DNA from: Octopus vulgaris
Lineage: Eukaryota
Direction of reading: 5' to 3'
Assembly: GCA_951406725.2 (NCBI GenBank)
Contig: OX597820.1
Coordinates: 95,232,001-95,296,000 of the forward strand
DNA length: 64,000 nucleotides
Part shown: positions 1-42,372 of the stretch, in pieces
How the letters are laid out: the number at the start of each line of letters is the position of its first letter
Position numbering within the stretch: the first letter of the stretch is position 1
Position numbers and translations under genes: made by a program
The notes under the pieces: model-generated
What the model was told of the DNA's origin: nothing
What the model saw: the letters and a program-made list of their open reading frames with translations, nothing else
Databases searched by the model: none

Positions 1-225
1 AGACATAGATACATTCTCAGTGGTTCTACCCTTGATTTAGCAGTATATCAAGGATATGACAACTGGAGGAAGTGAGGGCTGTTTCAGCACCTTGCTACTT
101 CTCACCTCTCAGCTGTGCAGACTGGAACAGTGCGAAATGAAGTCCCTTGCTCAAGGACACGCTCTACCACCTGCTCCAGGAGTCAAAGCAATGACTTTAT
201 AATCTTGTGCCCAACGCACACTCCA

Positions 226-258
<33 letters not shown>

Positions 259-1359
259 TGTATAAATATAGATAGATAGATATAATATGTTTGTGTCAAG
301 TGTTTCTAAAGTAACATAGAATAATTTGAAGAATGATTAGTAGGAAATTAACCACTCAAAAGTCAAGCCACTGTGGAAACTTCTATATGTTCCCCTGACC
401 TATTAGAAATATCAGTCAAATCTAACCCAAATCACAGACTGCTGTCTTAAAAAAAAGAAAGCACACATGGATAATGTAGTCCAAGATATATTATGCCTGA
501 ATAAAAGACAGTATGGTCATGGCTCTGTTTGAACAGAGTGATCTGGGGGTGGCAAATGAAATATAAAAGTGAATACTAACAACAGCAATATCCAATACTA
601 ATATTAAGATTATGTGTGTTTGTGTGCGACATTGTCTTGAAATCATGTGATGATAGTCAAATGAGCATCACCATCATTACAAGTGGCATTGTTCATTTCC
701 AGTCTTCCATAAAAAACACACCTGGCCACAAGGAAACTGGTGGAGTAGCTGGCCATAGAAAATTTGCTTTAACAATTAATATCTGACCCATATGAGCATA
801 GGAAAGGGGGCATTAGATGATGATGATGATTACGACAATGACAACGAGCTATTATTGTAGTATGACCTGTTAGGAATAGCTGCCAAATTTTCCTCAAAAC
901 ACTACCTATTAATTTGAAAGGAAGGATATACTGTATATTATGGACCCAGATTAAACTCTATAAAAAATGATAAACAGGTTGTTACCAGAATGCTGATGCA
1001 TAGTCCCAGGTCAACCCCGTTGGAGCAAGTCTATAGTCAATGACATTTCAACCCTGATCATCTCATTTTTATTCAGATGCAATGTATTAAAGACTACATT
1101 ATTGAATATGTCTTTTTTTTTTTTTTTAAATGTCTGTAGAATGTGAATGAACTGAAGAAGGTTGAGTGACTGTTTTGAGATTTTATCATTGGCTTAAACT
1201 GCTAAAATGTTTACATCATAGTTTGTTCTCTTCAATTCATACTGATCTGGGTCTTAACAACAACAGTGGCAACAACAATAAAATAATGGCCCTAGAAATT
1301 GTATTGATTAATATAAGAAATTAGTAATGACTGTATTAAATGCAGATGTTCTATTTCAG

Positions 1360-1452
1360 AATCTGATTGAGAGCCAAGATAAATACAACGGTCTCTATGC
1401 GGACATGAAAGAATACCAAAGAAATACAAATGAAGAAATTGCATCACTGAAA
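1360..1452 (+). CDS. Gene 1 internal exon (coiled coil); probable SPICE1-like protein, 5' exons lie outside the window
   Basis: tttcag| acceptor, |gtaagt donor, 93 nt open: NLIESQDKYNGLYADMKEYQRNTNEEIASLK, phase 0/0 into the next exon. Confidence 0.8.
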
Positions 1453-1515
1453 GTAAGTAGTGTTTGAAAGGAGGAAATTTATCTTTGTTGCAAGCTTAAA
1501 TTAGCTCAGCGTCTC

Positions 1516-1648
1516 TTTCAGGAACACTGGGACCAGTGTATTGCTGCACAAGGTGACTATTTCAAAGGAAATGATGTTAAAACTGGTACATAAGTTATTT
1601 TTTTATTAAACATAACTAGTCTGGGGACTTTTTGATACTGCCTTGTAT
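1516..1648 (+). mobile_element. Mariner 3' end fragment
   Basis: WDQCIAAQGDYFKG transposase tail followed by a TIR-like end gactttttgatactgccttgTA. Confidence 0.6.
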
Positions 1649-1704
1649 ACCAACATTTTAGCCATTCATTTATTTATAAGTTGTTGCTCTTTTTTATATT
1701 CCAG

Positions 1705-2233
1705 ACAAAAATCAATTTATTAACTAGCCCTGGAATGAATGGCACTATTTTGAAGCAGATTCAACAACAAAGGTCATCATCAGAAGTCGAACAACAACAT
1801 CAACAGCAACAAAATTACAGTTTTTCCTCTGTGCTCCATCAGCAGTTGTCCTCTCAGACCCATCAGCAGTTGCCTTCTCAAACCCATCAGCAGATACCTT
1901 CTCAAACCCATCAGCAATTACCTTCTCAAACCCATCAGCAATTACCTTCTCAAACCCATCAGCAGTTGCCCTCACCAACCCATCACCAGTTGCCTTCACA
2001 GAACGATCACCAGTTGTCCTCACAAGTCCATGCCCAATTACAGACACACGTCCAAAAGCTACAACAGCAATCATCTACACAGACCCATCAACAACTGAAG
2101 CAAACGACTGTGCAAGTTGAGCTGCAGCAACAGAAGCATCAATCAACTGTGCAGCTACAACATCAGCAACAAAAGCAAGAACTGGCACGTCTTGCTTGCA
2201 GTTTCCACTCCTTTCTGGATGACACTAGAAAAC
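1705..2233 (+). CDS. Gene 1 Q-rich exon with octapeptide repeats
   Basis: ttccag| acceptor, TKINLLTSPG...FLDDTRK, donor C|gtacgc phase 1, which matches the next exon (C+GC = Arg). Confidence 0.8.
1837..2028 (+). repeat. Coding minisatellite, 8 x 24 nt (HQQLPSQT)
   Basis: catcagcagttgccttctcaaacc-type units start at 1837, 1861, 1885, 1909, 1933, 1957, 1981, 2005. Confidence 0.95.
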
Positions 2234-3609
2234 GTACGCATTTCTTTAATTTCAAGTACCATTTCTTTTCATTGCGGTTTTTCTTCCCCCTTAGTATACA
2301 GTCTGGGTGATACTTGGGAGATATCTTGTTGAAGCAATTATTTTTACAGCCTTCCCTACTGCTAACCTTTTCAACCATCAAGTAGGGATGAAGCCAGAGT
2401 TTTGTCGGTCAGTTTGTTAGAAGAATAACTTGAGTACCAAAGAAAATGGTTAACAGTATTTCCTCAAGTCTTTTTATATTCTGAGTTCAAATCCTCATAG
2501 GGTTGATTGAGTATTAGTCACATACTGGGGTTAGTTTAACCAATCATTTTCACTGCTAATGTTACAAATCTATTTTATAGCCACCATTCTATGTTAGCAT
2601 AGGAAGGGCCAGAAATTTTCATATTTGAACATTTGCATTTAAATTATTTGAGAAAGGATTGTTGGTTATAGTTGTTGTTCCTGAGATCAACTTTGATCAA
2701 TGAGACCTATGATCAAAGAAGTTCTAATTGTGACATCATTTCATCTTTTTTGAAGATTAGTGAATCTAGGTATACTTCACTCAGTGTATACTTTTTATTT
2801 TTGCTTTGCTATTTTCGAGATGGTAGGTGTAATTTAAGGGAAATGTGGCTGCTGTTTTCAGTACTTTTTTTTGTTCATTTTCAGCTTGCTTTGATCTATC
2901 TCTGTTGACTCATGAGTAAGTATTGTTGGTGATGGAGGAGTGAATAGCTTCAGTCCATTCTACATGAACAGGCTAATGATTCGATGATAGCTGATGAAGT
3001 CTCACACTATAAATACATTGCAAATCTACTACACAGGCCATCATACAGTATTTTGTTGTTTGAGATCCATTTTAGCAATTTAGAAGTTTTGTGCTGGTTC
3101 AGATCACCTTGTAAATAATCATTTCCTGGTTTTGTTCAATGTTGTACTCATTGTCATAGAGCTTTTGAATTTTGCAGGGGGTAATGTAGCAAGAGTTAAT
3201 CCTCTGGTTCAGTATACTGGAATATGTCATCCATATACTCTAATTTTCTATTTGTTTCTGTACATATTGCATGTGACTTTCTGCACATATTGCATCCAAT
3301 TTTGCTTTTTGTATATGTTTTATATGTCTGTCTGTCCATAGGTTTGTTGGTGGTAGAAATTTGTATCCAAAATGAGCAAGGTGAAATAATGTGTCTTATA
3401 GCTTAGTTTTCTTCGGATAAATTATGTATTAACATCTTGTGTTAGAAAACTCACATTGGGCCTTACTCATTATCATTATTTCTATATATATAAACGTCAT
3501 TATATGCAATATCATAAATGCTATGGATGCTGAAGCATTAAATAAGGTAAATAGAACAAAACTATAATGAAGTGCCTATTTATTATAAAGTATCATCCTT
3601 CTAATTCAG

Positions 3610-3768
3610 GCCTGTTTGGATCAGCAACAGAAGAAGAGAATACAAATGGTTGGCATGATTCTTCTGCAGTTTATGAAACACATCAAGGAAATACTCTGAG
3701 CAGTTTTAAAGCAGCTTTCCAGCTTTCTCCTCCTGTGCAAAGAACACACGTGTCTTCAAATTCTAAAG
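3610..3768 (+). CDS. Gene 1 exon
   Basis: aattcag| acceptor, LFGSATEEEN...LSPPVQRTHVSSNSK, donor G|gtctgg phase 1, which matches the next exon (G+AT = Asp). Confidence 0.7.
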
Positions 3769-5052
3769 GTCTGGAGAATTTTTAATACTGTTTACGAATT
3801 CCAATAATTTACCCTTTTGCAGGCAGTTTCAGATAGACAGTTTTTCTACAATTGCATTATTATATTCTTTTAAATGCTCTTTTTATACTATAAGATTTTA
3901 AATTCAGCAGTGGATCTAAAAATCCATTGTTGACTTGAAACAATGTCAGTGAGTTCTGCTGAAGCTAAGCTTATAGCACTAGGGTAGAGTAGAGTAAGGT
4001 GCTTTCTTGAAAAATACATACAATGACTGTAACACTACTGTAGCTGTCAGTGATAGCAGCAACTTTCCATCATCCTGATCAAATAGATCTGTGGCATATA
4101 TTGATGATTATATAATTACATGCTAGCAATCTACATTCAGCATTCTAGATATACTAAGTCATTGCTGAGTTGAAGAGACCACAATGGGAACTCCAACATG
4201 CAATAATTTATTGTATGAAATGCACTGTGTCATTCTTGGCATAATTCTTCTGCCTATTTCTTGTAGCTCCTGGTGGTGGCTACTGCAGAGATGTTTAAGG
4301 TGGACTTAGAGCATACCATTTGTTGTAGTAGTGTTTTAACCAATAACTTAGATCATGGTTCTCCAATAATTTTGTAGCTGAAAAACAAGGATGAAAGGTA
4401 ATATGGTTTAAAAACCATTTCATCAAAGAGAGGTACAAGCAGATTTTGAGGTCTTTTTTTATATATCAATTAGTCAAAGAAGAGGCAGACTCTTGATTTT
4501 TACATGACTTCCTAGATCAGAGAGATTGATATGGTTGATACATAGCCTGAACATCTTTAGGAAATATATGGACAAGGAGGAGGCTTGTCTGAATGCTTGT
4601 AACAGAATGAACTTTGCTAAATGCACCCAAGGACCTGATAGTTGTATTAAACTGAGCAACATATTAGGACAACCACCTAATATATACTTAATACGTAAGC
4701 CCTTGCAATTGTTGTTTAACTTCAAATCAACTCTGATCAAGAAAACCTATGGCTAAAGATATTCTAATCATGACCATCTTGTCCTTCAGATATTTAGTTG
4801 AAAATCTGCAGATGCAATTAGTAGTAGATTAACTTTTGTAACATTTAAGAGCTAGCCTTTGATCTACACTTATTGGTTACTTTCATAAGTTTTCTTCCTT
4901 TAATTTGCAACCATAGGTCTGTTTCCTTTAAGCTGAGAAATGAGTGTAATCTTTTACTAACTAGGTAGGTTTAGGTTACAAGACTTGATCTAAGCTTAAA
5001 CACAAAAGCTATTGAGTAATCAGTAAAATTTTGTTTTATGTTATTCTTACAG

Positions 5053-5597
5053 ATCCACTAGAATTTTTGGATGAAGCTGAGCTCTCAGCATCGAAGTCCA
5101 TTTTTGATTTGACACAACAGCCTTCATTGAACACTTCATTTATATCAGATAAGCTTGTTACTGAAACTATTTTACCAGGACAAGTTCCAGAAGTGTACCC
5201 CTTTCAGAACGACACCACTGCTAGTTCTTTTAAACCAATAAACTCGGCAGTTTCTCAGTCAGTATTGCCTGAAATTCACAAAGACGTACCTGCTCGAGAC
5301 GACTGCCTTTCACCAGAGATAGAAAGCAAATCTTTCCTTGCCAGCCAAATTGAAGAATTAAACAAGCAACATGAAGAAGCAGAGAGACTTTTACAGAAAT
5401 TTCTTCAGAGTGGAAAAGAACACGAAGAAATGTTGAAACTTGGAGGAGAGTTTGAAAGACAATCTCAAACTGAGTTACAGAGAGCACAAGGAACTGATGA
5501 TTTTCTAACATTGCCTACATCTAACCAAATCTCCAATGAGGAGCACCCTCAAACTCTAGAACAACAGAGAAGTAACTCGCCACATATATTTAATGGT
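5053..5597 (+). CDS. Gene 1 exon with short coiled coil QIEELNKQHEEAERLLQKFLQ
   Basis: cttacag| acceptor, 545 nt open, |gtatgt donor phase 0. The coiled coil resembles the SPICE1 C-terminal motif IAELNRQSMEARGKLLQL as recalled, not searched. Confidence 0.8.
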
Positions 5598-6641
5598 GTA
5601 TGTATATAGAGTTAGTTTATTGTGTTCCTGTTTTTACTTTAATTCCTCATGTTGTATTTTTACTGCTTTATTGGAATTGTTAAATATCATTCTCCCTCTT
5701 ATCCATTCATCCAAGTGCTTATCCTTATTGCATATAACTTGTGATATAAATATTGTATAAAACTTGAAGCACAGTCTTGCACTAGATATTTCCTTGCACA
5801 ATGCACATGCCATGAGAATAAGGTTACAATAAACTTCTTTGTGAATTAGAGCTTGTACTCTAGCCTTAGTTCTAACTAATTGTAACTCCTACTGTGACTC
5901 CTAACCATTTTAATACTAACCATAAACCTAAGTCTAATCCTACCACACAGGGATCATAGTTTACTTGCAAGAGATTCTATTTGTTAGATCTATAATTATC
6001 CCAAGACATTTCTGCAAGTAAGATAGTGATTTCCAAAAAAGGGTTCAGAGATCTGTTCTACCATCAAAGAGAACATCAAAAATAGTATGAAATTCTTGTC
6101 TCTTCTTTAAGACCATTGTGACTTCAGGGAAGTGAAATTGGGGTAGGAGGATTGGGAAAATATTTAATATGGCATTCTGGGAGTAAGGCAGGTTTATGAA
6201 GCTGTTCAGTTTAACAAGACCTTCACTACAAAGTCCTTGAGTGTCTTAGGAAGTGTTCATTCTGTTGCAAACATTCAAGACAGATTCCTGTTCCCTTCAT
6301 ATCCACATTTCATTTCCTGCAAATGTTCAAGCTGTTCATCATTTGACCAGTTTGAGATGACCTACAAAAGTCATGGGCATTGCCCCTTCCTTTTTAACTT
6401 AGTTAAAAAAAAAAGGAGATAATACAGAGAGGAGGGATCATCAAGCTTTAAAGGGTTTGAACAAGAATGGGAAATAGTCAGAAAAGCTGGAACCAGTGTA
6501 TGTGTGGTAGAAAACACAGAGAAAAGACAATATGCTGTTGGATTAATGGCATGTGAGTGATTGTAGTATGTTGCTGATTAGCCTCTGATCAGTTCTATAA
6601 TGAAGATGTTCCAGTTGTGACCTATCCATTCTTTCATTCAG

Positions 6642-7225
6642 GTATATCCCAGGGGTGTAACCAGCCCACTTATGCATACCTTTTCCTTCTTTGGACACTA
6701 AACTCTGCTTGCAAAGACCTGTTGAGGCAAGTGAAATCAAAATCAAATTCGATGACTGGCATCCGTGCTAGCTGGGTGCAAAGAGCACCATACGAGTGTG
6801 ATCATTGACAGAGCGGCTAACTGGCTTCCATGCCAGTGGCACATAAAAGGCACCATTCAAGTGTGATCGTTACCAGTGTTGCCTTGCTGGCACTTGATCC
6901 CCATGCTAGTAGGGTGCTAAGAGCACCATCTGAGCGTGATCGTTGCCAGAGCAGCTATCTGGCCTCCATGCCGGTGGCATGTAAAAGATTCGAGCAAGGT
7001 CGTTGCCAGTACCGCCTGACTGGCCCCCATGCCGGTGGCACATAAAAGCACCCACTACCCTCTCGGAGTGGTTGGCATTAGGAAGGGCATCCAGCTGTAG
7101 AAACTCTGCCAGATCAAGATTGAAGCTTGGTGCAGCCATCTGGTTCACCAGCCCTCGGTCAAATCGTCCAACCCATGCTAGCATGGAAAGCGGACATTAA
7201 ACGATGATGACGATGATGATGATGT
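6642..7225 (+). mobile_element. RTE LINE 3' UTR copy with tandem hairpin units and (GAT)n tail
   Basis: Matches the sequence after the RTE ORF stop at 17403 and 26954. Confidence 0.85.
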
Positions 7226-7737
7226 TGATATTATCAGGGCACATTACTAAATTTGTCCCATTTTGAAAACACTAGGGTTAAATTGAAGGGTGCTTTGATT
7301 GCTATTTCTGGTAAGTCAAATGACCATATACATTGGTGAGTAATGGTATATCAGTCAAATATATATGATTGATTGATTGATTGATTCTAGTTTCAGCTTA
7401 TGAGCTGTGGCCATGCTGGGGCACCATAGCATTCGTTTAGATATGAATCTGTTTGTGTGGATAAATAATGCAATATGCAAATTCTTTTTTCTTTTTACCT
7501 TCCAACCAATACCAGTTTTAGAGAAATAGTTCTACTTGTCAAAGGAAAATCAAAATTATGAATTTTAGGTTTTGGAAAAAATGCTGAAAATCTTATAACT
7601 CTGTTGGACATTCGGTTAGCATATTGATGTATTTTGTTTTGTTGTTTTTTAAACATTTATTTCTTTTTGAGTAATTAAATTAGGTTAGTTTGTAACTAAT
7701 AAATCTTAACAACCAGTACAGCTACATGTGAACAGTA

Positions 7738-7973
7738 TTTATTTCCTTATTACCCACAAGGGGCTAAACATAGAAGGGACAAACAAGGACAGACATAGGT
7801 ATTAAGTCGATTACATCGACCCTAGTGCGTAACTGGTACTTAATTTATCAACCACGAAAGGATGAAAGGTAAAGTCGACCTCGGCGGAATTTGAACTCAC
7901 AACGTAACGGCAGACGAAATACCGCTAAGCATTTCGCCCGACGTGCTAATGGTTCTGCCAGCTCTCCACCTTA
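7738..7973 (-). mobile_element. tRNA-derived SINE family B (central gcctttcatcctttcggggtcgataa domain) flanked by a ~99 bp direct repeat
   Basis: Reverse complement of 14838-15070. Flanks 7634-7732 and 7974-8072 are nearly identical. Confidence 0.85.
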
Positions 7974-8269
7974 TTGTTTTGTTGTTTTTTAAACATTTAT
8001 TTCTTTTTGAGTAATTAAATTAGGTTAGTTTGTAACTAATAAATCTTAACAACCAGTACAAATACATGTGAATGGTACTGTAAAGTTTACACTTGTGTCC
8101 TGCAAAGTATCAGAGCTGCAATATGTTCTGATCATGAAGAGAGATATTATCTTTAATATCTTTTAAAATTGTAAATACCAATTCTCATTCATATTTTACC
8201 TTCAACTATTTTTAAAGATTCCCATTCATATTTGAGGTATAATATCAAAATAATGTCATTTTTCTGTAG

Positions 8270-8326
8270 GTATCTCCAGCAATATCGCCTATCATCGTTG
8301 AGGAATGTTTTGATCAAGCTGTTTAA
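8270..8326 (+). CDS. Gene 1 last certain coding exon, VSPAISPIIVEECFDQAV*; exon continues to the donor at 8333
   Basis: ttctgtag| acceptor phase 0, TAA 8324-8326, strong donor |gtaagt at 8334. SPAISPI resembles SPICE1 SPPMSPV (recalled). Confidence 0.65.
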   Translation, partial: VSPAISPIIVEECFDQAV

Positions 8327-22513: not shown

Positions 22514-23321
22514 AGATCTTTTCCTTTTGAACGGCACATGTCAACACAATTTCTAGTTAACTAAACACTTTTAAACTTCGTATACTGGTTGAATGTGTTT
22601 ATAAAACATCATTATTTTCTTGGCTTTATTGAGAAAATTCTATAGTTTGTAAGATATTTCGTCTGAAATTTCGAGCATTTCGGCAATTTTAACCAATCGC
22701 TGGAGTCCATTTAGGTAAACAACATTGCGTGCTGTGTGAATATGTCCCTCATTTAAGAAACAGATTGGGTTTATTAACATTTGCGAAGAAAAAAATATAC
22801 CCTTCCCCACCCCCAACCCTGAAATAGATTGAAATGCAATAGATCGATACTAGGGTTATAATTATGGGTGACAATTTCATATGACACCGCTACGGAAAAT
22901 GGGATTTTTTTCTAGCAGTGTCAAATGAAATTGTCACCCATAATTATAACCCTAGTATCGATCTATTGCATTTCAATCTATTTTAGGGTTAGGTTTAGAG
23001 TTATGGCTAGGGTTAGGGTTGGGGGTGGGGGAAGGGTATCTTTTTTCTTCACAAATGTAAATAAACCCAATCTGTTTCTTAAAGGAGGGACATATTCATA
23101 CAGCACGGAATGTTGTTTACCTAAATGGACTCCAGCGATTGGTTAAAATTGCCGAAATGCTCGAAATTTCAAACGAAATATCTTGCAAACTATAGAATTT
23201 TCTCAATAAAGCCAAGAAAAAACTGATGTTTTATAAACACATTCTACCAGTATACGAATTTTAAAAGTGTTTAGTTAACTAGAAATTGTGTTCACATGTG
23301 CTGTTCAAAAGGAAAAGATCC
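22514..23321. mobile_element. Complete foldback MITE with 8-bp TSD, Merlin-type
   Basis: TSD AAGAAAAG at 22506-22513 and 23322-23329. ~380 bp arms, ~20 nt loop, TTAGGG-like tract near 22983-23020. Confidence 0.9.
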
Positions 23322-23599: not shown

Positions 23600-23997
23600 T
23601 AATAATATTAATAATAATAATAATGAAATTATTGTATACAGTGCTCAGGTGCACCACAACTTGTCAGAAAGTGTGTATAAAGTATATGCAGTAATGTACA
23701 AATGTCTGGAAAGCAAACAATGTATGAGTCAGATACATGCTTGTGTGTGTATGGAGGGGAGAAAATCAGGTGTAGCGTTGGCGAATCTCAGAAAGCACGA
23801 AAGTTTTGAAGGATGCAGTGCTCCGACAACTAACGACTGATGCCGGCAATTTGTTCCATGCTTCAGCAACTCTCAGTGTGAAAAAATGTTTCTGAAAGTC
23901 ATGGGAGCTGTGCTGTTTTCTGACTTTGTAAACATGTCCACGGGTGTTAGACAGGTGGAGTTTGAAAAGGTGCTCAGAGTTATTGTTTGTAAGATGG
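23600..23997 (-). mobile_element. CR1/L2-type LINE 3' end, interrupted by the Gypsy element (resumes at 26288)
   Basis: KHFFTLRVAEAWNKLPASVVSCRSTASFK and an (ATT)n tail. Confidence 0.85.
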
Positions 23998-26287
23998 TGT
24001 AGTGTGAATGATGAAAAAGGACAACAGAAAAGGAGAAAGGAAATACAATTAGGTCTTACCTCGGCGAAGATTAGTCTACCAAAAACTCAGCGAAGATCAG
24101 ATCTCTCTCGATACGTCTCGTCCCTTCCTCGTGTGAGCTCCAACTGCCGCTTTGTCGATCCCACACCACTTCCGCATCCTGCTGCGCATGCGCCCTGCAA
24201 GCCCTATTTCCGCCCTCCCCTCATCTGTCGTCCTCTCCACCGACACCACACGCCCCCCTGATCTATAGATCACTGAACTGGCTTTCTCACTCGCTCCCCG
24301 CTCCCAAACTCGCACCTTAACTGGTTTCATAATCAGCCAACCAGGGAGGAGGGTGCCGTTCCCTCTGTGGTTGCAGTGCGACCCTAGGACTTGTTCCTGG
24401 TATGTTGCTGCTGGCCTCATCATCCTGTCTACTGGTGTTGTTTTCATCTTGCCCACTGCTGCTGGTCCCATCCTCTGAGGCATGGACAATCCTCCGTATA
24501 TCCAAAATGTGGCGTGGCATACCATCGACCGAGATGTTATTCTTTGAATTTACAGAGGGTATTGTCCCCCTTCCCCATTGTGATGTACACTGTGCGTTTG
24601 GGGGTTTTACCCAGGCGTGCTCTTCCTCTGCTCCGGGTCGCATTGATGTAGTACACAGATGCCTCCACTCGTACCTGAATATTGCCCTGTGTGACACCGA
24701 CTCCTCAGCATGTCCTGATCTGGGCGACATATTGTACCAAAATACGGCCTTGATTTGTGAAATGTGACCCCTCTTTGCCATGGTCTTGATGGTACGATGA
24801 TGCCTTTCCACCACCCCATTTCCACTTGGCCGGTATGCCGCCCTGAAGAAGCGGTTGACCTTCCACTCATCAAGCATTTCTTTCAGCACATCCAAGTGAA
24901 ATACAGTGCCATTGTCCAGAAGCAGTTCATCCACGGGGCCTCGTTCCAGGAATATCTCATTCAACACTTTCACAATTTCTTCTGTGGTCCCTGTCTTCAT
25001 CTCCCTCCATATGGCCAACCGCAATCGCTCACAACGTCAGCTGTAGTCCCTGCACTACAATCTGCGCATCTGTAACCCCTTCACAGTGTACTTCTCTTCC
25101 GTCGACAGCCCTAACATGCTTCCTCCACTCCACGTCTCTGCCACTTCTGTAGTTATCAGGGTCGTTGTATAGCCCATGTACACAAGGGCTCGCGACATCT
25201 TCCCCTCCACAGGTAGCGATGATAAGCGCACCTCTACTGATCCGAAGGGACGACTAGTGGCGCAGTAGTCTCCCACAGTCCATTTCCCCGCAGACACTCG
25301 CTGGCTATATGCCCCGGCTCTCGACACCGGTAGCAAATCACCTCAGGCTTGGGTGACAGGCAGTCACGCACCATGTGTGGACCTTGGCACCGGAAACACT
25401 GTCCTTTGAACGGTCGCACATGTTCTTTCTTTAGCCCCTCTCTGCTACTCCTAGCTGGGCCACTTTTCGATGTTGCAGTCACTGCTACCGACGTCATCCT
25501 GCTGCACGAAACTAGTACGCGTGCCCGAGATGTGATGTCTGCCATCGGCATCGAATGCACATTCGGAAGTTTCTGTAGCTCGACCGACATGTTGTCGGGA
25601 AAGCCAGTCATGAATGCCAACCTAACCGTCCGGTCCAGCGACTCTCCCTCATAACCCGCCAGTTTAGCCAGTCTTCTAAGTTCATTTGCAAACACGTCCA
25701 TCTCGTTCTACCCAGGCGAGCATATGCCTCGAACATTCCCTCCGCAAAGGCCTCCATCAACCGATTTCTACTTTCTCTGCACTGAGTTGGTCCGTCTCCT
25801 CCATCTCTAAATACAACGCCAACGCCGGGCCATCCAAGTACAGCGGCATGAAGCTCGCCAGGTCACCTATACCATGGAGCTTCGCCACCAACTTCACTTT
25901 CTTCAGCCAAGCGACTACATCTGTGTCGCCACAAAACAGTGTTATAAGTTCGTGCGAAACACGGGCACTCTTCATTATTTTTATTTATAAAACCGATTGT
26001 TTATATGCCGAAATAGCTTGTGGTGTGAATGATGAAAAAGCACAACAGAAAAGGAGAAAGGAAATACAATTAGGTCTTACCTCGGTGAAGATTAGTCTAC
26101 CAAAAACTCAGCGAAGATCAGATCTCTCTCGATACGTCTTGTCCCTTCCTCGTGTGAGCTCCAACTGCCGCTTCATCGATCCCACATGTGCGTCGTCCCT
26201 CACCGCTTCAGCGTCCTGCCGCGCATGCGCCCTGCAAGCCCTACTTCCACCCTCCCCTCATCTGTCATCCTCTCCACCGACACCACA
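23998..26287 (-). mobile_element. Gypsy LTR retrotransposon, deletion derivative (gag, partial protease, partial integrase; no RT/RNase H)
   Basis: LTRs 26019-26287 and 23998-24250 (TG...CA), TSD GATGG, PPT next to 24251, gag with two CCHC knuckles, integrase DNG...GNGVVERHHRTIK. Confidence 0.95.
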
Positions 26288-26686
26288 GATGGTTAATAAT
26301 TTCAGGTAGTGTTTCTCCACCATTTTAAAAATCTCAAGCTCCACTTCATACATGTGTGTGTACGTGTGTGTATTTGCTCGCTTGCTTCATGTTCTTGCTT
26401 GATGGGACTGGGGTCATCCCAGGCTGGTGGTCCCAGAGACATAATCTTGGGTAGATCCGACCAGGTTCAACCCCTTTGCATCTTCCAAGATGACGTTAAG
26501 CCTCCAGAGATCTTCCGTAATCACATCTTGTGTGAGGCCTCTTTCAATCCACTGCTGCTGTACCGAATGTGAGTAAGACCTGGTATGTATGCATATATAT
26601 ATATATATAAGTTCAGCAAAATTTAAATTCAGATGAATATGGTACTTAAGTTAAAGGCACCAGATTTTGTATGGTACTATCCATAT

Positions 26687-27406
26687 AAAGCTGGACCTAA
26701 GAAGCATCAGTTGTGGTGTGCAAGAGAGTCGTTTGCGCTGGTATGGTCATGTGGCGAGAATGGATGAAGATAGTTATGTGAAAAAGTGCCATACCCTAAT
26801 GGTTGAGGGAACCTGTGGAAGAGGCAGACCCAGGAAAACCTGGGACGAGGTGGTGAAGCACGACCTTCGAACTTTAGGTCTCACTGAGGAAATGACTAGA
26901 GACCGAGACCTTTGGAAGTGTGCTGTGCGTGAGAAGACCCAGCAGGACAAGTGAGACAATAACCCGGGATGTGCCAGTCCATTTATGCATACCTTTCCTT
27001 CTGGGGACACAAAACTCTACTTGTGAAGACCTGTTGAGGCAAGTGAGAATCAAAATCGATCAACATCAATGGAAATTGCAGCTGTGATACTAGTGCCGGT
27101 GGCACGTAAGAGAACCATCCGAACGTGGCTGTTGCCAGCACCACCCCGACTGGCCTCGTGCAAGTGGCACGTAAAAAGCACCATCCAATCGTGGCTGTTT
27201 GCCAGCCTCGTCTGGCACCTGTGCCAGAGGCACGTAAAAAGCACCCACTACACTCACGGAGTGGTTGGCATTAGGAAGGGCATCCAGCCGTAGAAACATT
27301 GCCAGATCAGACTGGGCCTGGTGCAGCCTTCTGGCTTCCCAGACCCCAGTTGAACCGTCCAACCCATGCTAGCATGGAAAGCGGACACTAAACGATGATG
27401 ATGATG
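26687..27406 (+). mobile_element. RTE LINE 3' end with complete 3' UTR
   Basis: RLRWYGHVARM...GRPRKTWDEVVK, stop 26954, (GAT)n tail. Confidence 0.95.
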
Positions 27407-27450
27407 GGGTGATTATAATCAAAATAAGCAACAAGGATATCCAAGGTAGA

Positions 27451-27536
27451 GTAGTACAATTGTTTCATGCTACTTCATTTTATTAAACCCTGTAAGTATT
27501 ACATCAGTTTTAAAATGTCGAGCAATCTTCAGCCAC
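27451..27536 (-). ncRNA. Minimal type I hammerhead ribozyme candidate (inverted copy)
   Basis: Reverse complement of 27625-27710 with all core and stem positions identical. Confidence 0.65.
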
Positions 27537-27624
27537 ATGTAGAATTTTTCAATTAAACGGACAATGCACATTCTTATACTTATTTCAATTTGTCATTGTC
27601 CATTTAATTGAAAAAATTCTTTAT

Positions 27625-27710
27625 GTGGCTGAAGATTGCTCGACATTTTAAAACTGATGTAATACTTACAGGGTTTAATAAAATTAAGTAGCATGAAACA
27701 ATTGTACTAC
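27625..27710 (+). ncRNA. Minimal type I hammerhead ribozyme candidate
   Basis: GTGG-CTGAAGA-tTGCT...AGCAt-GAAA-C-AATT-G-TA-CTAC: complete core, palindromic loop III, GUA cleavage site at 27706. Confidence 0.65.
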
Positions 27711-27753
27711 TCTACCTTGGATATCCTATTTGCTTATTTTGATTATATACATA

Positions 27754-28163
27754 TATATAGTCATAAATGACAGAAATATTTAGATGAATCTTTATTGATT
27801 AAAAAAAACCCAAATATCCACGACAAATTTGTTTCATAACTCAAAAAACATGTAAACAAATAATTTTGTCATACTGAATAATAAATAAATTACACATCTG
27901 AAATAGACTTTATGTTAATTTCTTTTTTTTGACATGAAATATATTTCACCTGATAATATAGCTCAAATTCTTCTGCATTATTTTGACAGACTTTTTTACA
28001 TTTCGTATTAGTGCAGACATGTAAGTAATCTATTTATTATTAAATATGATAATACAAGCTATTTACGTGTTTTTTGAGTTATGAAACAAATTTGTGATAT
28101 TTAGATTTTTTATTGTGAAATAAAGATTCATCTAAATAGAGCTCTGTCATTTATGACTATATA
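27754..28163. mobile_element. Second, older foldback element with a decayed hammerhead-like motif
   Basis: tatatagtcataaatgacag / ctgtcatttatgactatata ends. GAAAC-AAATTT-GTC on the minus strand at 27822-27835. Confidence 0.75.
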
Positions 28164-29998: not shown

Positions 29999-30338
29999 AA
30001 CATGCATTTGTTAGTTCACTTCTTATTATTTATCAATTAGTTGATAATTTAGCTAGTAAATCAATTTACTAATTGATTGTTTTATTAACCATTTGGTCAA
30101 TCAATCAGCTAGGTTTGTCAAAGTTCTTAAGTCACCATTCACAACCTCATCAATGACATAGGGCATGTCATTGATGAAATCATGAATGGTGAGGAAAAGA
30201 CTCTTGACAAACCTAGCTGATTGATTGACTGATGAAATGATTAATCAAACAATCGCTTAGTTAATTGATTTACTAGTTAAATGATTAATCAACTGAAAAC
30301 TGAAAAATAAAGAAGTGAAACTAAAACAGTGCATGTGT
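29999..30338. mobile_element. Third foldback element
   Basis: tcaatcaatcagctaggtttgtcaa / ttgacaaacctagctgattgattga and central tcatcaatgacat / atgtcattgatga. Confidence 0.8.
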
Positions 30339-41379: not shown

Positions 41380-42372
41380 TAGTGATGTAAAGGAAGAAAA
41401 AAGACGGAAGCGAAGAGAGAATTACTGTAGTCATACCTGTCGGTCCAGAAAAAGGGTCACTTTCAACATCCATGTGCTGTCTTGATCTCCAAGGTTCACT
41501 CCACGTCGCTGTACAGTCTCACATGTCCGCTCTGATGTGCTGTCCACTGCCAACTGGCACCTCGTGCTTTTCTGTTGCTGCATGTCCACCACTGCACTTC
41601 CGGTGGGATCCACAGGCCCCACTTCCAACAGGACATGCCTACCCCCTCACTTCCGATCCTTCCCTACAACACAGCCTGGCTCATACCCCCCCCCGATCTG
41701 AAGATCATTCAACCAACCTGCCCATGCCCTCTTCTTGACCCCGACCACATACCTTATCTTGTCTTATAATCAGCCAACCAGTGAGGCAGGTGGCGCTCCC
41801 TCTGTGGGACTTCAAGACTGGCCTCAGCTCCCAGCATGTTCCTGCTGGCTTCATCCTCTTGTCCATTCCTGTTGGCCCCATCCTCTGTCACAGTGATGAT
41901 CCTGTGCACATCCAAAACATGTCTTGGCATGCCATCTACGGATACATTTTTCCCCAAATTCACAAAGGTTATTGTCCCCCTTCCCCACTGTGATGTACAC
42001 TGCACATTTGAGGGCTTAACCCAGACTTCTTCTCCGACCTGCACAAAGGCATGCTCTTTCTCTTTTGCAGGATGCGGCAATGCAGTACATGGATGTCTTC
42101 ACTTGTACTTGAATATTGCCCTGTGTGACACCTACTCCTCAGCCTGTCCTGTCCTGGGTGACATATTATACCAAAAAATGGCCTCGACCAGTGAGATGTG
42201 GCCCCTCCCTGCTATGGTCTTGATGGTACGATGATGCCTCTCTACAACCCCATTGCCACTTGGCCTGTATGCCGCCCTGAAGAAACGGCTGACATGTCAC
42301 TTGTCGAGCATTTCCCCCAGCACCTCCATGCGAAACGCACTGCCATTGTCCACAAGCAGCTCATCCACAGGA
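41380..42372 (-). mobile_element. Gypsy fragment: integrase C-terminus, PPT and 3' LTR (related family, different LTR)
   Basis: VWVKPSNVQCTSQWGRGT...VSVDGMPRHVLD...PQRERHLPHWLADY parallels 24317-24940. C-run PPT 41686-41694. Confidence 0.9.

Follow-up and report, generated by a model that had tools for sequence, protein, structure and literature searches.

The inverted repeat at 27414-27747 of the window, the 64,000-nucleotide stretch of Octopus vulgaris DNA analysed here, very probably stems from a single insertion of a Penelope-like element (PLE) of the Hydra clade in a TA microsatellite, 5'-truncated and 5'-inverted, and consists of the two 3' ends of that insertion. The insertion was likely primed on both target strands and is now likely inert, and its hammerheads are predicted to be active only in the RNA of master elements. 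The 334-bp feature is part of a larger insertion and not a stand-alone foldback element. Judged from its sequence, it derives from an abundant octopus PLE, which forms a new family within the known class.

The two inverted arms, 27414-27566 on the minus strand and 27594-27747 on the plus strand, are about 154 nt long and 95% alike, in agreement with the ~153 bp inverted repeat first reported. Inverted-repeat detection gives 96% identity for the core arm stretch (27414-27549 and 27612-27747), and the arms extended across one indel are 95.3% identical over 148 nt. Their alignment contains one indel, one end gap and six substitutions, and the hammerhead core is free of substitutions. The earlier note had placed the left boundary of a discrete foldback element at 27414. 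The left copy passes this position, continues to 27405, and resumes from 26689 to 26606 on the far side of a nested insertion, about 800 bp further on. The whole Penelope insertion spans 26606-27747 (Table 1). At the site of the nested insertion, about 5-7 nt of the tail are gone. The RT/GIY-YIG ORF is absent from the truncated window copy. The plus-strand and minus-strand copies overlap by 2 nt at the inversion junction. In a genome-wide search (2.8 Gb), the junction pattern matched only the window locus. Because the junction is unique in the genome, the foldback was never mobile as a unit and formed once, at this locus.

Table 1 Features of the window, with positions counted from its first letter.
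Feature	Position	Strand	Description
(TA)n target, left side	26593-26610	.
Tail remainder	26606-26689	-	Remainder of ~99-nt tail, family +17..+99; ends at site B, then (TA)n
Nested insertion	26690-27403	+	Younger, splits the tail; 3' end of LINE-like ORF and dispersed repeat ending in GAT repeats
Main 5'-truncated copy	27405-27595	-	Family -186..+9; the arms are separated by its extra 27 nt; 2-nt junction overlap
Second hammerhead motif	27451-27536	-	Mirror of the plus arm; GUA site (A17) at 27455
Inverted 5'-truncated pLTR copy	27594-27747	+	Family -158..0; ends at the short end (site A), then (TA)n; with hammerhead motif
Type I hammerhead motif	27625-27710	+	Stem I, CUGAAGA, U.U closing, 59-nt stem II region, GAAA, palindromic CAAUUG; GUA site at 27706
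Stem I, GTGG	27625-27628	+
Core 5' half, CTGAAGA	27629-27635	+
Closing U, 5' side	27636	+
Stem II, TGCT	27637-27640	+
Stem II, AGCA	27690-27693	+
Closing U, 3' side	27694	+
Core 3' half, GAAA	27695-27698	+
Helix III, C-AATT-G	27699-27704	+
UA	27705-27706	+
CTAC after the site	27707-27710	+
(TA)n-like target, right side	27744-27759	.
Last five coding exons of SPICE1-like gene	1345-8323	+	Protein match; one exon with Gln-rich repeat

Each arm contains a putative type I hammerhead, in whose sequence CUGANGA, GAAA, UH and the three helices can be recognized. Both cores and their GUA sites lie where they had been claimed. The 59 nt between the core halves form a long stem II hairpin, and stem III has 2 bp. 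The earlier designation as a minimal type I hammerhead is apt for the type I core and the palindromic loop III; "minimal" does not suit the motif, since the stem II region is 59 nt long. A hammerhead descriptor, composed only after the motif had been seen, matched twice in the window and in none of 100 block shuffles. The Rfam scan of the window returned no hammerhead family and only hairpin miRNA models below the gathering score. Rfam probably missed the motif because 59 nt separate CUGAAGA from GAAA. Minimum-free-energy folding of a single arm was no better than that of shuffles (z 0.29, -1.61, 1.00). The predicted cleavage site, at family position -41, is within the pLTR, 41 nt ahead of end A and 140 nt ahead of end B.

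The R10.1-Y11.1 pair of hammerheads, usually G-C, is absent, and stem II is closed by U.U instead. This closing is fixed in the subfamily of the window (U in 49/51 and U in 58/60 sampled arms), and sister subfamilies close stem II with G-C, G-U or A-U. The earlier note had listed the U-U pair as a caveat. Stem II has this pair at its base in 14 of the 25 Hydra-clade families that Craig et al. 2021 list in File S2 (PMC8557442); by this sequence comparison, it is a trait of the Hydra clade and not a defect.

A further hammerhead-like motif with a long stem II, a G-C closing and a different palindromic helix III is present in the region L064:4522-4619. The PLE-linked copies L107 and L142 carry identical hammerhead motifs on both strands, and because of this identity their inversions are considered very young; L107 has a different helix III palindrome.

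A genome BLAST search with one arm, which the earlier note had recommended, gave 1846 candidates, 40 of which were scored. A tight pattern across the hammerhead core has 694 exact genome matches, compared with 0 for the control. The window locus is one among hundreds to thousands of dead copies. Insertion ends were counted in 84 non-redundant loci (90 fetched via three queries, minus 6 duplicates), which are best BLAST matches rather than a random sample, and two of which gave no match at the level of at least 84%. The family is polar: its 3' ends are fixed, whereas its 5' ends vary. Among 109 arm ends, 37 coincide exactly with site A, which is the right end of the feature, and 50 are at site B, 99 nt beyond it. 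The 5' ends spread from -2 to -1846, with one at +35, across the 84 loci. The insertion ends adjoin (TA)n, and both fixed sites read TTATA/AT. Single-armed, polar copies account for 55 of the 84 loci. Head-to-head inverted pairs, whose junctions differ, account for 27; inverted pLTRs of this kind are also published for Penelope elements. The 5' truncation points cluster at internal TA-rich spots at family positions -258, -180 and -910, a pattern suggesting that the 5' junction, too, involved microhomology to the (TA)n target.

Full elements of the family are organized as pLTR-ORF-pLTR, and the ORF comprises an RT, an Asn-rich linker and a GIY-YIG domain. The expected linkage of the hammerhead to Penelope ORFs was found: a GIY-YIG domain is located upstream on the hammerhead strand (Pfam PF01541, E 4e-5 and 6e-6), and RT motifs together with the EN occur on this strand at loci L062, L088, L096 and L103. 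The RT was called from motif matches to the published Hydra alignment, with reference sequences compared by eye, and from the ESM Atlas. There, the N-terminal 480 aa matched RT-like clusters (best 0.98), with RVT_1 in 16-48% of the members of the three listed clusters. A Pfam search of two long ORFs, from L103 and L096, returned no family. Locus L088 belongs to the same subfamily as the window and shares 94% identity with the hammerhead/tail stretch of copy L021. It is composed of an inverted tail-less pLTR, a broken RT-EN ORF and a tailed pLTR, which is the design of the window with a longer body. Loci L090 and L092, from sister subfamilies, have the direct order pLTR-ORF-pLTR, and their tail continues into the ORF leader about 60 nt ahead of the start codon. 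Such a continuation was seen in 10 places. The family thus shows the direct or inverted pLTRs, optional tail and 5' truncation of PLEs. The linkage to RT and GIY-YIG, the layout of L088 and the two fixed ends confirm the earlier view of a ribozyme-bearing Penelope derivative with inverted pLTRs, rather than a DNA MITE.

The diagnostic characters of the Hydra clade are RWK, DKT, a CxCX5C linker, a GIY-YIG domain without internal CxxC and a (TA)n target, to which a 3' type I hammerhead is added (Craig et al. 2021, PMC8557442). The octopus family shares them. RWK and DKT are present at L103, an RWI variant and DKT at L090 and L092, and DKT at L088. The EN translations of L047, L050, L088 and L103 have the CxCX5C linker, no CxxC inside GIY-YIG, a CxxC before E and a CxH after N. 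The (TA)n preference is evident in the family and in the flanks of the window insertion.

Locus L103 (2551-5391, minus strand), L104, L105 and L106 contain near-identical copies of a related subfamily with about 65% EN identity. Their frames are open over 766-947 aa, with a long Asn-rich insert between RT and EN. This subfamily may be the youngest branch.

Among the Hydra families listed in PMC8557442, Penelope-5_HM has a hammerhead core and stem II opening identical to those of the octopus family. Penelope-13_HM has an inverted, 5'-truncated copy that, like the window, carries the motif on each strand. The octopus family differs from the listed families in the distance between the core halves (59 nt versus roughly 12-26 nt), in its ORF of about 950 aa with an Asn-rich insert, and in its 3' UTR of about 1 kb. 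Its tail of about 99 nt exceeds the 30-40 nt stated for PLEs. Hydra-1_Obim from the same source is, by eye, another family with a different N-terminus and hammerhead. The metazoan PLE minimal hammerheads described by Cervera and de la Pena 2014 (PMC4209133) are likewise of type I, with a short helix I, a palindromic helix III and a predicted action as dimers. They have a highly conserved G10.1-C11.1 pair and a 7-8-bp helix II, whereas the octopus motif has the U.U closing and a long interrupted helix II. The same paper reports opposite-strand hammerhead pairs in Schistosoma, 100-700 bp apart, and ascribes them to truncated PLEs. The Penelope families of Adineta share the tail on one inverted pLTR, the head-to-head inversion and the Asn-rich inserts (Arkhipova et al. 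2013, PMC3846280). Inverted 5'-truncated pLTRs with one tailed end, opposite-strand hammerhead pairs and an octopus Hydra family with a hammerhead are already published. A literature search limited largely to open-access papers found neither this octopus PLE family nor a stem II of such length in any Hydra hammerhead.

The feature could also be a non-autonomous retrozyme, or a foldback element, that amplifies as a unit via circular RNA. The short repeat of non-LTR retrozymes, which contains a type I hammerhead, is related to PLE pLTRs, and an origin from these has been proposed in a 2026 retrozyme preprint, whose main text does not mention octopus. We consider the retrozyme reading very improbable for the window feature. 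Retrozymes as described so far are head-to-tail tandems, whereas no short tandem array was present at any of the 84 sampled loci, 27 of which hold head-to-head pairs with differing junctions. The window junction occurs once in 2.8 Gb. Insertion ends are not enriched at the hammerhead cleavage site: among 109 arms, a single 3' end at -42, which is interpreted as an internal deletion, and a single 5' start at -40 are close to it. The octopus copies are the 5'-truncated ends of a coding element.

The ribozyme is conserved between subfamilies of this PLE. The 3' UTRs were extracted via an anchor outside the ribozyme, which was present in 38 of 65 EN-linked loci and missing from 27. Three of the anchored loci were dropped as rearranged, which left 35 sequences in 14 clusters. 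Conservation reaches 0.98 at the 12 core positions, 0.54 at N7, 0.77 in stem II and 0.57 in the flanks, the last value being depressed by gap columns. The core is better conserved than stem II (P=4e-5). In 24 chosen sequences, 84.8% of the cells of the hammerhead structure are paired, versus 79.7% after shuffling (0/500), and 53 cells have a two-sided change, versus 21.6 (0/500). Both values far exceed those of slid controls; the structure was drawn from the same related sequences on which it was tested. The number of pairs with a two-sided change is a weak signal (21/500 shuffles), and further pair types are not above the shuffles (385/500). The stem covariation that the earlier note had called for is thus seen in the two-sided changes and not in the further pair types. 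The middle of stem II is only weakly paired, and RNAalifold recovered only a distal 5-bp stem II hairpin, not the hammerhead fold. The varying pair of helix III is A-U in 16 sequences, G-C in 6 and G-U in 2. The helix stays palindromic or wobble-compatible, as would be expected for action as a dimer.

Within the subfamily of the window, the core is not better conserved than its surroundings. In 71 arms from 53 of 57 loci, chosen without reference to the ribozyme, mismatches affect 24/674 core positions (3.6%) and 321/7779 positions elsewhere (4.1%, P=0.54), with 6 polymorphic columns excluded from the counts. The core is intact in 33 of 48 sampled arms of the subfamily. In inserted copies, the core decays as fast as expected under neutrality. 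The anticipated excess of core over flank conservation exists between subfamilies (0.98 versus 0.57) and not among copies of one subfamily. Because the core is kept between subfamilies and decays neutrally within one, selection probably acts on the master elements and not on inserted copies. From its sequence, the hammerhead is predicted to be a type I ribozyme.

The inverted pairs indicate how the foldback may have formed. With ends at -15..+1 assigned to site A and those at 80..99 to site B, the 27 pairs comprise 22 A+B, one B+B and no A+A combinations, as well as four in which an arm reaches neither end. The two-ended inverted copies thus join a short end to a tailed end in 22 of 23 cases. 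In the two sets not selected by tail, 12 of 13 inversions are A+B, the window included (P=0.002 versus 0.5). In the Poseidon element PAc of Anolis, cutting and extension take place on both target strands, the template is uncleaved RNA, and two internal RT starts define the tail (Frangieh et al. 2024, PMC11167929). This scheme fits the octopus family because the cleavage site at -41 precedes nearly all of its ends. In PAc, initiation occurs at a site without homology to the cut DNA, whereas ends A and B of the octopus family share TTATA with the target. The octopus family also differs from PAc and Adineta in that its hammerhead and both ends are upstream of the start codon.

We hypothesize, on the model of Frangieh et al., that the element protein nicks both (TA)n strands and that reverse transcription begins within uncleaved RNA at sites A and B. 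Since both sites read TTATA/AT, a nicked TATA end may anneal to either of them. One strand would prime at B and the other at A, and the two short cDNAs would be joined head-to-head via the 2-nt microhomology. The tail of the window copy was split later by a retroposon. The hammerhead may be selected during transposition only, likely as a dimer formed via the palindromic stem III. Self-priming on an antisense template has been put forward as an alternative route (Arkhipova et al. 2013, PMC3846280).

Read-through RNA of the window locus would fold into a near-perfect duplex of about 150 bp, a plausible ADAR substrate. Double-stranded RNA is heavily edited in octopus, and both hammerhead cores of the window copy are intact. 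The earlier note had suggested from this arrangement a switch between cleavage and double-stranded RNA, tipped by ADAR editing. We consider co-option of the copy for such a switch very improbable. With cores intact in 33 of 48 arms despite neutral decay, two intact cores need no selection. Since the motifs face outward, transcription of either strand produces the antisense arm ahead of the ribozyme. Predicted energies are -229.1 kcal/mol for the duplex and -6.8 kcal/mol for the hammerhead fold, and the latter does not even correspond to the minimum-free-energy structure of a single arm. The 2-bp stem III probably requires a same-strand partner, and editing would presumably strike core adenosines as well. 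The insertion is 18 kb from the nearest mapped gene, whose end is at 8323. Contigs from four presumed-RNA runs cover the arm, and no row of A-to-G changes lies within the element; as the sequence has many copies and 5' ends are not visible in contigs, this result counts neither for nor against the switch. The predicted product of read-through is plain double-stranded RNA, possibly edited and uncleaved. The locus is likely the inert scar of a single insertion and not an RNA switch.

The reading as a DNA MITE with terminal inverted repeats (TIRs) in a TA target and an incidental hammerhead match, to which the 334-bp near-palindrome with TA flanks at 27414-27747 lends itself, was rejected as having a negligible probability: no TIR-bounded unit is repeated, the junction is unique, the left "TIR" runs on into the family tail, single-armed, polar copies are in the majority, the arm is linked to the RT and GIY-YIG of a PLE, the core is conserved and the stems covary.

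The exon at 5016-5606 is 100% identical to an Octopus vulgaris SPICE1-like protein. The last coding exon of this gene is at 8258-8323, and the Penelope insertion lies outside its coding span. The right side of the insertion adjoins an AT-rich, MITE-like foldback (27754-28163; 21-nt perfect outer arms, 71-nt inner arms, 85%), which is unrelated to the hammerhead arms. Other repeats of the window include a near-palindrome at 30023-30306 (85-nt arms, 79%; inner 28-nt arms), with a hairpin score below the Rfam threshold, and inverted arms of 306 nt at 22515-23320 (93%, spaced 194 nt). A GC-rich element at about 23900-26300 resembles an LTR retrotransposon with a deletion; its two ends are similar in sequence, and it contains zinc-knuckle and integrase-like frames on the minus strand. 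Near 41750-42230 there is a related piece of an integrase.

Taken by itself, the window locus is a transposon scar of the ordinary kind and of minor importance, though it offers a modest lead on mechanism. The leads of worth are the long stem II and the A+B rule. The long stem II was missed by Rfam here and exceeds the spacers of the published descriptor search, and such motifs may therefore be undercounted. Tentatively, we speculate that the octopus Hydra family records PLE integration: a dimeric RT-endonuclease would prime the two strands of a TA microsatellite at two TTATA-marked RNA sites, one per strand, which would lead to the near-obligate pairing of short and tailed ends. The covarying 59-nt stem II would, in the same scheme, be a protein-binding arm that gates the U.U-closed hammerhead and would represent a long-stem class missed by standard descriptors. 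We regard this scheme as possible rather than probable. The A+B rule (22/23 two-ended inversions, both ends TTATA) is countable and bears on the mechanism of PLE integration, and the two fixed end points may hint at the mode of PLE insertion.
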